Shown here in pieces: positions 22,691-41,693 of a stretch of DNA of 64,000 bases. The DNA lies in contig NC_086108.1 of assembly GCF_963921235.1 (NCBI RefSeq), forward strand, positions 50,284,001 through 50,348,000, in the 5' to 3' direction. The notes under the pieces were generated by a model. The model had not been told where the DNA came from. It ran no database searches and saw only the letters and a program-made list of their open reading frames with translations. Both the position numbers and the translations under genes were made by a program. Position 1 is the first letter of the stretch. Each line of letters begins with the position of its first letter. Source of the stretch: Mobula hypostoma (Eukaryota).

Positions 22691-23650
22691 CCATGCCATT
22701 TACATCCAAGGGATTGGTGGAACTCTTTCATCACGTGAGACTTTATCTACATATGGGATCTTCCCTTTGTTAGTACTAGTATAAAATGGCATAAAGTATT
22801 TTAGATAGTGAGAGCACCACGGAAGAAAATCAATTTCTACTTGTTTTCTCATGTTTTGGGGTGCAAGTAACATGTTGGCCATTCTTAGTCACTACTGTCA
22901 GAACCCATGTTGCAATTAAGGCCTGTGATCCACTCCTTTCTGAGCATTCTGAAAAGATTTTCTCAATAATCCCTCTTTTGAAGTAATTACATATTATCTA
23001 CAGCCAAAGTATCCACTTTCTTCAAGATTCTGCTTTGCCAAATTGAGGTGTAAACAAATATCTGATGACCTCAGTCAACTTTTTGCACCTCTTGAGCATA
23101 CTTTTGGAGTCCTATTCTTGTTTGCTGCCAGTCCTTTCTTATGCTTTTTCTTTGCCTCTCCATTTTCTTTTGTATGTCCCCATTGAATTTTCTGTAGTTT
23201 TCCTGCAGTTTATTTGTGTTAACAACCAGCCATTTATCATTTGTTGTTTATTTCTGCTCTATTTTACTTTCAGTACTTTTGGTCATCCAGCGAGCTCTGG
23301 TTTTAGTTTCTTTATCCTGCACTCATACAGGAAACGTTTCTACTTTAATGGCCTCCTCCTGCTGTTTAATTATAGTTTTGCCTGCCAGGCTTTGGTTCCT
23401 GTGTATTGAGTCCAGATCTGCTCTCATCCCTTAGTAATTGTTCTTTCTTCAATTAATCATTTTTATCATGGAGTAGTTTATATTCATTTTCATAGCAATT
23501 CTAAATCTGATGATATTATGGTTGCTGCTTTTCAAGTGTCACCCTTATGACACTACCGAGCTTTCCTACAACCAAGTCCATCAATGCCTCTTTCCACTTG
23601 GGCAGAAATGAATGTCCTCCTGAACAAATTTTACTATCTCTTACTATCTC

Positions 23651-23792
23651 TTTTTTCAGTTAGTCCTGACGAAGGGTCTCAGCCCGAAACATCGACTATA
23701 CCTCTTCCTAGAGATGCTGCCTGGCCTGCTGCGTTCACCAGCAACTTTTATATGTGTTGCTTGAAATTTCAGCATCCGCGGATTTCCTCGTG
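23651..23792 (+). mobile_element. PLE terminal repeat insertion
   Basis: Near-identical to 26515-26657; flanked by TTTACT(A/G)TCTC repeats at 23630-23640 and 23793-23803. Confidence 0.85.
23662..23697 (+). ncRNA. minimal type I hammerhead ribozyme motif (AUC variant)
   Basis: AGTC-CTGACGA-A-GGGT CTCA GCCC-GAAAC-ATC-GACT. Confidence 0.65.
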
Positions 23793-23869
23793 TTTACTGT
23801 CTCCTCTCCTACTTTACCTCTTATATTATTGATAACCGAATCTATATTTGTAGAGTCGAATTCTCCCAA

Positions 23870-24770: not shown

Positions 24771-25063
24771 CATCATTTCTACCATAGGGCTTTTGCACAT
24801 TTCTATTATGTTCTTCCAAATTTCCTCTTTGATATCCTTCACACCAGTTAGTAGCCACCAAATTCCAGTAATGTAATCCCACCTACATTATTTCTTCCTA
24901 CTAATCAGATTGATTCTTTTCTTGATTATTCCAGGACATCCTCTCTCTCCAGCACTGTAATATTCTACTTAATAAATACTTCCATTCCCTTGATTTTTAT
25001 CCCAGCCCTTTGTGTCCAGGAATATTCTGAACCATCTACTCTATTTTTACGAATCCTTATGAC

Positions 25064-25175
25064 CTGATGAAGGGTCTGGCCCAAAAGGTCACCTCTACAG
25101 ATGCTGCCTGACTTGCTGAGTTCTTCCAGCATTTTGTTTGTGTTGCTCTAGATTTATGGAATCTGCAAAATTTCT
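25064..25175 (+). mobile_element. degenerate PLE terminal repeat
   Basis: CTGATGAAGGGTCTGGCCCAAAAGGTC...AGATGCTGCCTGACTTGCTGAG. Confidence 0.65.
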
Positions 25176-25756
25176 TGGGTTTATGCTCTATCATTACCCA
25201 GGTCTCTGTTATTACCACAATATTGTACTCCCATGCGGTTTTATGGACTAGCAGCTCAGCAATCCTGTTCGGAGTACTTCTTGCGTATACCTATGTAGAT
25301 ATTGTAAACCTACCCATTCCTTCCTATACTCTTACTCTATTCCTGTCTAAGAGCTTTTGATTGGCTTTATGTGTCAATGCAAGGAGCATTCGTAATAAGG
25401 TGGATGAATTGAAAGTGCAGATTGTTATTAATGATTATGATATAGTTGGGATCACAGAGACATGGCTCCAGGGTGACCAGGGATGGGAGCTCAACGTTCA
25501 GGGATATTCAATATTCAGGAGGGATAGACATGAAGGAAGGGGAGGTGGGGTGGCGTTGCTGGTTAAAGAAGAGATTAACGCAATAGAAAGGAAGGACATA
25601 AGCCGGGAAGATGTGGAATCGATATGGGTAGAGCTGCGTAACACTAAGGGGCAGAAGACGCTGGTGGGAGTTGTGTACAGGCCACCTAACAGTAGTAGTG
25701 AGGTCGGAGATGGTATTAAACAGGAAATTAGAAATGTGTGCAATAAAGGAACAGCA

Positions 25757-26657
25757 ACAACAATAAAGGAACGCCTCTTCCTATAGATGCTGCCTGGCCT
25801 GCTGCGTTCACCAGCAACTTTGATGTATGTTGCTTGAATTTCCAGCATCTGCAGAATTCCTGTTGTTTCCATGATAGAAAAGTTACCTTGATATCCTGAG
25901 AACTCCAGGTACTTTGAAGCCCACTTTAAGAAGAGATTCAGAGGTGACTTGGAGTACCCCCCATTCTTTGCCATATAATTTGTACAGTTGTCCTTGTAAT
26001 CCTGATGAAATGGGAGTTCCGATTCTGATTCTGATCTAGAAAGCCAAAACTGAGCAGTTTCATAAATGGCAAGAAAAAGAGCGGAGGATGTTCAGAGTCA
26101 GTAGTTGGGCTGTGTGGCTCATGGAATGAGCCTCATTAGTACTACTTCATAGCAATACCATGAGGAAAGAATATGTCACATTCGATGGAGGTGAACTATT
26201 TTCATCCCTGGTTGAAAATGCCACTCTTTCCAGCTGTGCAAGCAGGCTGTCGTGTTCAGATAATAAAGCATTTGGCAACAGTTAAATACTCAATCTAAGC
26301 ACTTCTGTCTGATAACCAAGTTAGTTTCTCACCAGGATACAGACATAAAATTAACTGTCTACCACCTCAAATCTAAATTTAAAGTCACCTGTCCAGCTCT
26401 TGGCTCCATCTAATCACCTGTCCAGCTCTTGGCTCCATCCCTCCCCCTCCTGTCTTCTCCTATCATTTTGGATCTCCCCCTCCCCCTCCCACTTTCAAAT
26501 CTCTTACTAACTCTTCCTTCAGTTAGTCCTGACGAAGGGTCTCGGCCTGAAACGTCGACTGCGCCTCTTCCTATAGATGCTGCCTGGCCTGCTGCGTTCA
26601 CCAGCAACTTTGATGTATGTTGCTTGAATTTCCAGCATCTGCAGAATTCCTGTTGTT
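25757..26657 (+). mobile_element. composite PLE-derived insertion with non-repeat cargo
   Basis: Identical 96-bp PLE ends at 25772-25867 and 26562-26657; cargo at 25868-26384; AGCA repeated at 25753-25756 and 26658-26661, restoring the CR1 frame KGTA|VIMGDF. Confidence 0.9.
26525..26560 (+). ncRNA. minimal type I hammerhead ribozyme (PLE-associated)
   Basis: Stem I AGTC/GACT; core CTGACGA; stem II GGGT-CTCG-GCCT; GAAAC; GTC cleavage triplet (cut after 26556); loopless palindromic stem III ACGT. Confidence 0.8.
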
Positions 26658-29222
26658 AGCAGTTATAATGGGTGACTTCAATCTACATGTAGATTGGGTG
26701 AACCAAATTGGTAAAGGTGCTGAGGAAGAGGATTTCTTGGAATGTATGCGGGATGGTTTTTTGAACCAACATGTTGAGGAACCAACTAGAGAGCAGGCTA
26801 TTCTGGACTGGGTTTTGAGCAATGAGGAAGGGTTAATTAGCAATCTTGTCGTGAGAGGCCCCTTGGGTAAGAGTGACCATAATATGGTGGAATTCTTCAT
26901 TAAGATGGAGAGTGACATAGTTAATTCAGAAACAAAGGTTCTGAACTTAAAGAGGGGTAACTTTGAAGGTATGAGACGTGAATTAGCTAAGATAGACTGG
27001 CAAATGACACTTAAAGGATTGATGGTGGATATGCAATGGCAAGCATTTAAAGGTTGCATGGATGAACTACAACAATTGTTCATCCCAGTTTGGCAAAAGA
27101 ATAAATCAAGGAAGGTAGTGCACCCGTGGCTGACAAGAGAAATTAGGGATAGTATCAATTCCAAAGAAGAAGCATACAAATTAGCCAGAGAAAGTGGCTC
27201 ACCTGAGGACTGGGAGAAATTCAGAGTTCAGCAGAGGAGGACAAAGGGCTTAATTAGGAAGGGGAAAAAAGATTATGAGAGAAAACTGGCAGGGAACATA
27301 AAAACGGACTGTAAAAGCTTTTATAGATATGTAAAAAGGAAAAGACTGGTAAAGACAAATGTAGGTCCCCTGCAGACAGAAACAGGTGAATTGATTATGG
27401 GGAGCAAGGACATGGCAGACCAATTGAATAATTACTTTGGTTCTGTCTTCACTAAGGAGGACATAAATAATCTTCCAGAAATAGTAGGGGACAGAGGGTC
27501 CAGTGAGATGGAGGAACTGAGCGAAATACATGTTAGTAGGGAAGTGGTGTTAGGTAAATTGAAGGGATTGACGGCAGATAAATCCCCAGGGCCAGATGGT
27601 CTGCATCCTAGAGTGCTTAAGGAAGTAGCCCAAGAAATAGTGGATGCATTAGTGATAATTTTTCAAAACTCGTTAGATTCTGGACTAGTTCCTGAGGATT
27701 GGAGGGTGGCTAATGTAACTCCACTTTTTAAAAAAGGAGGGAGAGAGAAACCAGGGAATTATAGACCGGTTAGCCTAATGTCGGTGGTGGGGAAGCTGCT
27801 GGAGTCAGTTATCAAGGATGTGATAACAGCACATTTGGAAAGCGGTGAAATGATTGGACAAAGTCAGCATGGATTTGTGAAAGGAAAATCATGTCTGACG
27901 AATCTCATAGAATTTTTTGAGGATGTAACTAGTAGGGTGGATAGGGGAGAACCAGTGGATGTGGTATATTTGGATTTTCAAAAGGCTTTTGACAAGGTCC
28001 CACACAGGAGATTAGTGTGCAAACTTAAAGCACACGGTATTGGGGGTAAGGTATTGGTGTGGGTGGAGAATTGGTTAGCAGACAGGAAGCAAAGAGTGGG
28101 AATAAACGGGACCTTTTCAGAATGGCAGGCGGTGACTAGTGGGGTACCGCAAGGCTCAGTGCTGGGACCCCAGTTGTTTACAATATATATTAATGACTTG
28201 GATGAGGGAATTAAATGCAGCATCTCCAAGTTTGCAGATGACACGAAGCTGGGTGGCAGTGTTAGCTGTGAGGAGGATGCTAAGAGGATGCAGGGTGACT
28301 TGGATAGGTTGGATGAGTGGGCAAATTCATGGCAGATGCAATTTAATGTGGATAAATGTGAAGTTATCCACTTTGGTGGCAAAAATAGGAAAACAGATTA
28401 TTATCTGAATGGTGGCTGATTAGGAAAAGGGGAGGTGCAACGAGACCTGGATGTCATTATACACCAGTCATTGAAAGTGAGCATGCAGGTACAGCAGGCG
28501 GTGAAAAAGGCGAATGGTATGCTGGCATTTATAGCGAGAGGATTCGAGTACAGGAGCAGGGAGGTACTACTGCAGTTGTACAAGGCCTTGGTGAGACCAC
28601 ACCTGGAGTATTGTGTGCAGTTTTGGTCCCTTAATCTGAGGAAAGACATCCTTGCCATAGAGGGAGTACAAAGAAGGTTCACCAGATTGATTCCTGGGAT
28701 GGCAGGACTTTCATATGAAGAAAGACTGGATGAACTGGGCTTGTACTTGTTGGAATTTAGAAGATTGAGGGGGGATCTGATTGAAACGTATAAGATCCTA
28801 AAGGGATTGGACAGGCTCGATGCAGGAAGATTGTTCACGATGTTGGGGAAGTCCAGAACGAGGGGCCACAGTTTGAGGATCGAGGGGAAGCCTTTTAGGA
28901 CCGAGATTAGGAAAAACTTCTTCACACAGAGAGTGGTGAATCTGTGGAATTCTCTGCCACAGGTAACAGTTGAGGCCAGTTCATAGGCTATATTTAAGAG
29001 GGAGTTAGATATGGCCCTTGTGGCTACGAGGGTCAGGGGGTATGGAGGGAAGGCTGGGGTGGGGTTCTGAGTTGGAGGATCAGCCATGATCATAATAAAT
29101 GGCGGTGCAGGCTCGAAGGGCCGAATGGCCTACTCCTGCACCTATTTTCTATGTTTCTATGTTTCTATGATTTCTTGTTCGAGTTCTACTTCTCTCCCTC
29201 TGTCCTTTTACACCCATGTCTC

Positions 29223-40868: not shown

Positions 40869-41693
40869 TATATGATATGATTATGAAGACACGTAGTCCT
40901 CTTTTATTGTCATTTAGTAATGCATGCATTAAGAAATGATACATATTTCCTCCGGTGTGAAATCACAAAACACAGGACAGACCAAGACTGAAAAAACTGA
41001 CAAAACCACATAATTATAACATATAACAAACAAGAGGAATTCTGCAGATGCTGGAAATTCAAGCAACACACATCAAAGTTGTTGGTGAACGCAGCAGGCC
41101 AGGCAGCATCTCTAGGAAGAGGTACAGTCGATGTTTCAGGTCTGAAATGTCGTCTGTACCTCTTCCTAGAGATGCTGCCTGGCCTGCTGCGTTCACCAGC
41201 AACTTTGATAATTATAACATATAGATACCATAGTGCAACAATACCATAACTTGATGAAGAAGTCCATGAGCACAGTAAAGTTCAAAGTTTCTCAAATGCC
41301 CCGCATCTCACGCAGACGGGAGAAGGAAGAAAAACTCTCCCTGCCATGCCGACCACAATCTGACTCTGAGTCATCCGAAAACTTCGAGCTCTGATCAGCT
41401 GTCCGACACCGAGTACTGAGCGCCATCTCTGTCCGAACGATTCGACCTCCTTCTCGGCCGCCAAAAGCAGGCAAGGCTGGGGATTTTGAGGCCTACCCGC
41501 CGAAAGATTCCTGACCACGCAGTAATGACAGCAGCGAACGGGCGTTTCAGAAATTTCTCCAGATGTTCCTTTGTGCTTTCACGTCCATTCTCCATCAAAT
41601 CAGAATTGTCCACGGCTCCTATTTAACAGATACGATATCATTTTTCACCAGAGGGCTGCGCACATGCAGGCGCGCCGCCATCTTCTCCTCCTC
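40869..41693 (-). mobile_element. non-autonomous non-LTR element (CpG-rich 5' end, AATAAA plus TCATA-repeat tail)
   Basis: 5' GAGGAGGAGAAGATGGCGGCGCG; AATAAA at 40908-40903; interrupts an old CR1 tail and hosts the PLE fold-back insertion. Confidence 0.55.
41026..41207. mobile_element. fold-back (inverted) PLE terminal-repeat insertion
   Basis: 68-bp inverted arms at 41072-41139 and 41142-41209; 16-bp direct repeat ATAATTATAACATATA at 41010-41025 and 41208-41223. Confidence 0.9.

Follow-up and report, generated by a model that had tools for sequence, protein, structure and literature searches.

Penelope-like elements (PLEs) are known to frame host DNA: in Adineta vaga, an NRPS gene and non-coding pieces lie between PLE terminal repeats (pLTRs), according to the accessible part of that report (PMC3846280). 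The locus analysed here resembles those cases in carrying unrelated host DNA between direct PLE repeats, with a target-site duplication (TSD), an empty site and the PLE ORF acting in trans; it differs in that the donor is identified and one-ended and that both ends come from a younger subfamily, whereas the accessible text on Adineta traces no donor and maps no subfamily crossover (PMC3846280). For the anole PLE PAc, the available portion of the in vitro study describes an internal start of reverse transcription and insertion left unchanged by hammerhead mutants, with both strands primable and cleavage dispensable (PMC11167929). Like PAc, the present family has its 3' ends at two sites, ~65-75 and 100-110 nt after the cut; PAc is of the Poseidon type, whereas the ORF considered here carries the CX2-5CxxC linker, described in the passages at hand as a Neptune/Nematis trait (PMC11167929, PMC8557442). 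The same portion of the PAc study treats later steps as unvalidated and reports neither transfer between subfamilies nor host capture (PMC11167929), and both the way in which PLEs build their terminal repeats and the role of the hammerhead are stated there as open (PMC8557442, PMC11167929).

Non-LTR retrozymes, as far as the available sections describe them, share with the insertion a type I hammerhead motif of PLE origin, a non-coding nature and dependence on PLE protein; the insertion departs from them in its lack of a tandem array, its one hammerhead, its two copies and its unique host cargo (10.64898/2026.07.22.740005, PMC4209133). Retrozymes are defined by a hammerhead in at least two consecutive units and by a multi-copy family, and the insertion, whose left end has no hammerhead, shows neither, so that the label "retrozyme-like" in the initial annotation had to be dropped. 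Further parallels come from retroviruses, in which minus-strand strong-stop transfer moves a short first cDNA by homology to another end and copy choice can capture cellular sequence, and from L1/SVA 5' transduction, which carries host DNA lying upstream of an element end. Unlike its retroviral counterpart, the process proposed below would be target-primed by a GIY-YIG endonuclease, would use no tRNA primer or integrase, and includes a transfer step that we infer. A literature search of titles and the starts of abstracts, covering few subscription papers and no supplements, returned no subfamily crossovers at a PLE hammerhead. Within that limited search, PLE-framed host DNA is known, and the traced donor, the ends from different subfamilies and the mapped crossover are apparently new.

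The insertion lies in a stretch of 64,000 nucleotides (G000:C50:50284001-50348000, hereafter the window) and interrupts a LINE that we take to be of CR1 type. Positions relative to the hammerhead are counted from the first base past the predicted cut (position 0, window 26557; -1 is 26556); A denotes the PLE end of the donor and B the young subfamily. The features are as follows.

25361..25756, + strand: 5' half of the CR1-type LINE ORF, APE endonuclease (Pfam Exo_endo_phos, E=1.9e-07)
25753..25756 (left) and 26658-26661 (right), + strand: TSD AGCA, 4 bp (empty site in L019)
25757..25771, + strand: junction filler, 15 nt (sequence comparison)
25772..25868, + strand: left PLE end, young subfamily B, +5 to +101 (100% identical to the full-length reference over 97 bp)
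25869..26384, + strand: host cargo, 516 bp, copy of C21:71159040-71159555 with one mismatch (26306)
26372..26385, + strand: left copy of the 14-bp TSD of donor insertion A, carried along (both copies in donor L002)
26385..26439, + strand: 26-bp tandem duplication (26385-26410 and 26414-26439), identical in the donor
26413..26556, + strand: old-type PLE sequence before the cut, with no difference from donor A (A-diagnostic bases up to 26509)
26510..26561, + strand: crossover interval from old A to young B, -47 to +4 (donor and subfamily comparison)
26524..26561, + strand: minimal type I hammerhead motif, drawn by hand (cut predicted at 26556/26557)
26557..26657, + strand: right-hand PLE end of young subfamily B, 0 to +100 (this 101-base post-cut stretch occurs unchanged at 1,140 places, control 0)
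26658..28986, + strand: 3' half of the CR1-type LINE ORF, RT (Pfam RVT_1, E=4e-34)

Overall, the locus is one PLE insertion in which two young-subfamily ends enclose host DNA from C21 and the end of an old element. Direct pLTRs bracket the host sequence at its new location, for which a TSD (of 4 bp only) and the empty site are known. The initial annotation had described a CR1 ORF2 split by an insertion; the split stands, the flanks being the two halves of one APE/RT ORF by Pfam, and the CR1 name is one that we presume. An uninterrupted copy of the LINE at L019, 98-99% identical, provides the empty site (98.7% across the last 156 bp of the 5' half), and the 3' half carries an in-frame stop at 28417-28419. 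As annotated, 25772-25867 is identical to 26562-26657, with the match stopping at both edges, the repeat begins 5 nt past the predicted cut, and AATAAA is present at 26262. The lengths needed adjustment: the T at 25868 belongs to the PLE, giving a left end of 97 bp and a cargo of 516 bp instead of 96 bp and about 517 bp, and the filler comes to 15 nt, not 16, once the AGCA duplication is set aside. Within and beside it, 25761-25772 is a 12-nt direct copy of the target at 25741-25752, and the final 7 nt of the PLE end recur in reverse complement at 25756-25762, which may be chance. The TSD measures 4 bp against 9-16 bp for most copies of the same family; together with the filler, this short, trimmed duplication suggests a processed far end, which would make +5 a poor marker of an RNA 5' end.

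The parent family B appears from its sequence to be a canonical EN+ Penelope-like element. All four full-length copies keep an open ORF of 1043 aa, with an RVT_1 match (E=3.4e-05, below Pfam's cut-off) and a C-terminal GVIY-C-C-YIG endonuclease (two cysteines between GIY and YIG) recognized by eye and not called by Pfam. B copies also show the partial tandems (pLTRs), inverted 5' arms and TSDs of canonical EN+ elements, in which a 30-40-bp tail is optional, and the pLTR holds a minimal hammerhead motif (by hand). The endonuclease is preceded by the CX2-5CxxC linker, by which motif, rather than by a tree, the family would be Neptune/Nematis-like.

A search with the cargo returned at least two matches, the window itself and C21:71159040-71159555, which agree at 515 of 516 bases. 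On C21 the cargo runs on unbroken from upstream host DNA and then meets the short PLE end A, flanked by its 14-bp TSD; in the donor, the PLE end thus follows the cargo on its downstream side. Over 25869-26561, window and donor share 692 of 693 bases, after which 6 of the next 61 differ and the donor ends sooner; likewise, the right PLE end differs from the donor at 6 of its first 61 bases and extends beyond the donor's end. The left PLE end has no counterpart in the donor alignment. What had been annotated as foreign cargo is therefore host DNA that PLE machinery carried away from one donor locus. The coordinates given for the 26-bp duplication were right, its role as a mark of the cargo/PLE junction was not: it sits at the 5' junction of donor insertion A and was inherited. 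Two further readings of the cargo were rejected, namely that it is the normal 5' region of the PLE (full-length copies run into the 1043-aa ORF instead) and that it is a non-autonomous multi-copy family (two matches, the window included, as a lower bound).

A PLE end directly upstream of the cargo, which read-through from such an end would predict, was sought in the assembly, in read contigs X1 and X4, which probably derive from the source sample, and in contigs X5 of a sister species, and none was present; a further run, X9, was left out for its low coverage. Within 60 kb around the donor and in X1, X4 and X5 we found no B end upstream of the cargo; the closest same-strand PLE end upstream of the donor in the 60 kb examined is old and 5.7 kb distant. 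In the assembly and read contigs examined, the donor is thus framed by a downstream end only, not by two. X5 contains both junctions of A, with an unbroken contig across the cargo start and seven differences in the cargo, and a contig of that species also spans the 26-bp duplication, which therefore predates the present event. At the seven differences the window has the donor state at six and the sister-species state at one (26306). Taken together, the junctions of A in X5 and the shared donor states indicate that insertion A predates the species split and that the window copy postdates it. The sister-species base at 26306 fits copying from another donor allele, and a subsequent mutation of the donor would account for it just as well. 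Later conversion of the donor end from B type is unlikely, as the sister-species contig has at most one unlisted difference there (L002 2232).

The cargo shows no sign of function. Its minus strand, at window ~25887-26039, has splice-acceptor-like and donor-like ends and two open frames. None of eight frames from this stretch gave a Pfam match at the curated level, the best PDB match had an E of 0.64, and a coding cargo was rejected on this absence of a Pfam or PDB match; the sister species has a 1-base deletion inside the stretch (one contig of depth 2.8, which may be an error).

The right repeat is a chimera. Before the cut it carries the old-type bases of A at -127, -86, -67, -66, -55 and -48, where B copies differ, and after the cut it is of B type; the subfamily bases on either side place the crossover between -47 and +4. 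A crossover spread uniformly over the ~210 shared bases would fall in this interval about one time in four, so that the locus by itself is weak on position, and as the interval includes the cut, a switch at the cut is compatible with this locus alone. Among 76 tabulated segments, none but the window's right repeat paired this type of old pre-cut part with a B post-cut part, and L012 joined an intermediate pre-cut part to a B post-cut part. Chimeras were then counted among the 94 exact-B copies in the matches listed (the first 100 less six members of full-length pairs), which come from C1 and C2. Forty-eight reach -90 or beyond, and two of these (~4%), L012 and L133, are chimeric; L043, a third flagged copy, has only two adjacent shared bases. 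L012 (C1:19657429) is TSD-flanked and joins an aged, internally deleted pre-cut part of intermediate type to a perfect young post-cut part, with a crossover between -66 and +6; none of the 40 scored among its 3,212 candidate donors proved to be the source. L133 has an old-type pre-cut part and belongs to a set of seven loci in which a B end, three bases and an old fragment follow one another; upstream of it there is no host cargo, and its flank has no close second copy.

The seven loci (L168/L201 at C18:80316440, L167, L169, L170, L175, L176 and L177) form a small non-autonomous chimeric PLE family, and they map a crossover finely. L168 (= L201) retains the old post-cut end and the other six carry the young one. 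These six share with L168 its rare T at -24, present in 3 of the 23 nearest relatives, and have B bases at -9, +5, +6, +16, +17 and +27; the T at -24 and the B bases from -9 on put the crossover between -24 and -9, upstream of the cut. At -9, 4 of 23 old relatives likewise have T, and a repeat mutation there on so short a branch seems unlikely. The six progeny loci may all stem from one crossover. In L201, 0.4-4.7 kb upstream of the old fragment, PLE pieces of 92%, 94% and 99% identity are joined end to end, as nested insertions or several template switches between subfamilies would leave them.

We next compared these crossovers with the places where copies begin and end. The 5' ends of the 94 exact-B copies, a sample that required an intact 0 to +100 and is therefore blind to ends after the cut, number none at -10 to 0, 40 at -45 to -11 and 6 at -100 to -46, the remaining 48 being longer. 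The clustering near the cut that a ribozyme-made 5' end would leave was thus replaced by a cluster of primary ends 11-45 nt upstream, and this finding, with the crossover mapped upstream of the cut, leaves that proposal of the initial annotation unsupported. In a survey of segments from 414 kb taken regardless of B and 309 kb of flanks, with anchors dropped, 5 of 48 segments (at least 88% identity) start between +5 and +25; one is the left end in the window, and the other four are second or inverted segments. Counted by eye, about 4 of 42 inverted arms stop between -3 and +19, as does the window's left end.

The 3' ends fall at ~+64 to +75 in inverted arms and at ~+100 to +110 in main arms, and the window's left end stops at +101, the modal 3' end (32 of 90). 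CCAT follows it and is the most frequent of the target words (6 of 90 after four tandem continuations were dropped, background 0.0049, binomial p 6e-6); the word was noticed in the first 66 copies and occurred in none of the 24 added later, which makes the enrichment less firm than this p value. In L069 and L076 the sequence continues from -29/-41 at unrelated internal positions (-666, +234), probably by non-homologous jumps at the usual stop, as far as the junctions themselves tell. In ~10 kb of flank from eleven copies, most of which lacked a nearby TSD, no further TSD of at least 9 bp turned up at a distance.

The hammerhead itself is of the minimal class defined in the available part of PMC4209133, with a stem I of 5 bp, a stem II with G-U at 10.1-11.1 and a palindromic ACGU replacing stem III. 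The initial annotation had called it intact; a minimal motif is present (by hand), with G-U and not G-C at the 10.1-11.1 pair. The hand-drawn fold has -7.0 kcal/mol against an MFE of -11.0, cleavage is predicted, and an Rfam scan found no hammerhead at E up to 1. At window 26548 (-9), the young subfamily has G-U where 19 of 23 old relatives have G-C, and the most active subfamily might thus carry the weaker ribozyme. TCAGTT, which we take to be an initiator-like motif and a possible transcription start of the element, lies at window 26519-26524 (-38 to -33), where many copies start. From the copy ends and this presumed motif, the RNA would start near -36.

The likely origin of the insertion is a switch of the RT from a young end to an old end inside the hammerhead region. 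First, a young B end would have inserted at a CCAT 516 bp upstream of old A, in an allele absent from the assembly; second, RNA from the terminal repeat of B would have read through the cargo into A. Third, the PLE endonuclease would have nicked the LINE, with the RT beginning internally near +100. Fourth, the RT would have come to a halt at or near the 5' end of the RNA, within the hammerhead or a little upstream of it, and the short cDNA would have re-annealed to the homologous stretch of A, much as in retroviral strong-stop transfer. Fifth, the RT would have copied the pre-cut part of A, the cargo and then the B end again, and sixth, the far end would have been cut back and closed by templated filler. 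The hidden donor allele is the simplest explanation of the left B end and would make the event a normal cycle on a composite RNA. The left end at +101 followed by CCAT supports an insertion of B at the donor CCAT site, and ends at RT start sites would favour an RNA intermediate. We consider retrotransposition with a switch in the hammerhead region (the third to fifth steps) highly probable; granted these, the hidden-allele steps earn a little over half of that confidence, and the explanation as a whole has about an even chance. Read-through from a PLE end into its flank, as first annotated, hence remains likely, and does so only by way of a donor allele absent from the assembly.

A tentative reading, held well below even, dispenses with that allele: reverse transcription would have started on B RNA, moved by homology to a host read-through RNA ending in A, copied 516 nt and re-started at +101 on B RNA, so that B never stood at the donor. 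It requires only loci actually seen, and L069 and L076 do jump to other templates past the -30/-41 stop; the mosaic of 92-99% pieces in L201 and the B end of the seven-locus set, which adjoins the 5' end of the old fragment with three extra bases as re-initiation predicts, also speak for it. Its costs would be two switches and a putative plus-strand donor transcript. Moreover, the junction falls on the family's commonest target word, and +234 and -666, not +101, were the landing points of the two further non-homologous jumps. The CCAT bias could itself stem from a primer preference of the RT, and a jump in trans would share that preference.

More doubtful is a ribozyme cut, whereby two hammerheads would have cleaved a read-through RNA and the monomer or circle been copied more than once round, the switch lying exactly at the cut, a model proposed for PLEs in the accessible part of PMC4209133. 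The crossover interval of the window includes the cut, the left end begins 5 nt after it, and the few second segments that end at +5 to +19, like the segments beginning at +5 to +25, are a small point in its favour. Several points speak against it: no primary 5' end among the 94 falls at -10 to 0, the crossover that could be mapped finely lies between -24 and -9, a circle would not halt the RT at -11 to -45, and this reading also requires an unseen upstream end. Minimal hammerheads are, moreover, described as poor cleavers in vitro and cleavage as dispensable for the anole PLE, in the portions of those studies available (PMC4209133, PMC11167929).

Repair at the DNA level, in which a two-ended B insertion broke and was patched from C21 by one-sided synthesis-dependent annealing through shared PLE sequence, is very improbable. 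The short TSD and templated filler do resemble end-joining, and the cargo bears no trace of splicing or poly(A) by which an RNA step could be proved (it contains no intron whose loss could be scored). On the other hand, under repair it would be mere chance that the non-homologous junction coincides with both the most used RT start and the most frequent target word, and the same type of chimera recurs in the TSD-flanked copies L012 and L176. An assembly artefact that joined C21 sequence into the LINE on C50 is scarcely credible: X1 does have a single unbroken contig across the cargo start, but the X4 contigs break at the first cargo base, where depth rises from 5.7 to 12.2 and the read graph of that one run shows the second cargo copy, the two copies differ at one base at which the window matches the sister species, and the insertion has a TSD and filler.

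A broader and still speculative idea, which we put well below an even prospect, is that PLEs build their direct repeats by strong-stop transfer. A cDNA of ~110-145 nt would end inside the hammerhead and anneal in trans to a homologous RNA end, every dead PLE end would offer an active subfamily a handle for gaining upstream host DNA, and the hammerhead would serve as a transfer (R-like) region, not as a maker of 5' ends. Identical repeats normally conceal the joint; here old and young subfamilies mark it and make the crossover mappable, with further cases to be had among the long young copies, of which about 4% (2 of 48) are chimeric. A genome-wide crossover map from existing data could pit cleavage or a circle against stop-and-transfer. 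Single and non-functional as it is, the insertion records a traced, post-speciation case of a PLE carrying host DNA from one contig to another, in a vertebrate-type genome where old PLE ends abound, and provides a usable marker for an open step of PLE replication.

The surroundings of the insertion are themselves rich in PLE sequence, with ends of older subfamilies at window 23636-23794, 25063-25175 and 41027-41209, one of them with an inverted arm. L019 (C1:66868046) holds an independent B copy in the same LINE family, in opposite orientation and ~3-12 bases from the window's site (25753-26668), and the two insertions together possibly point to a site preferred by the endonuclease.
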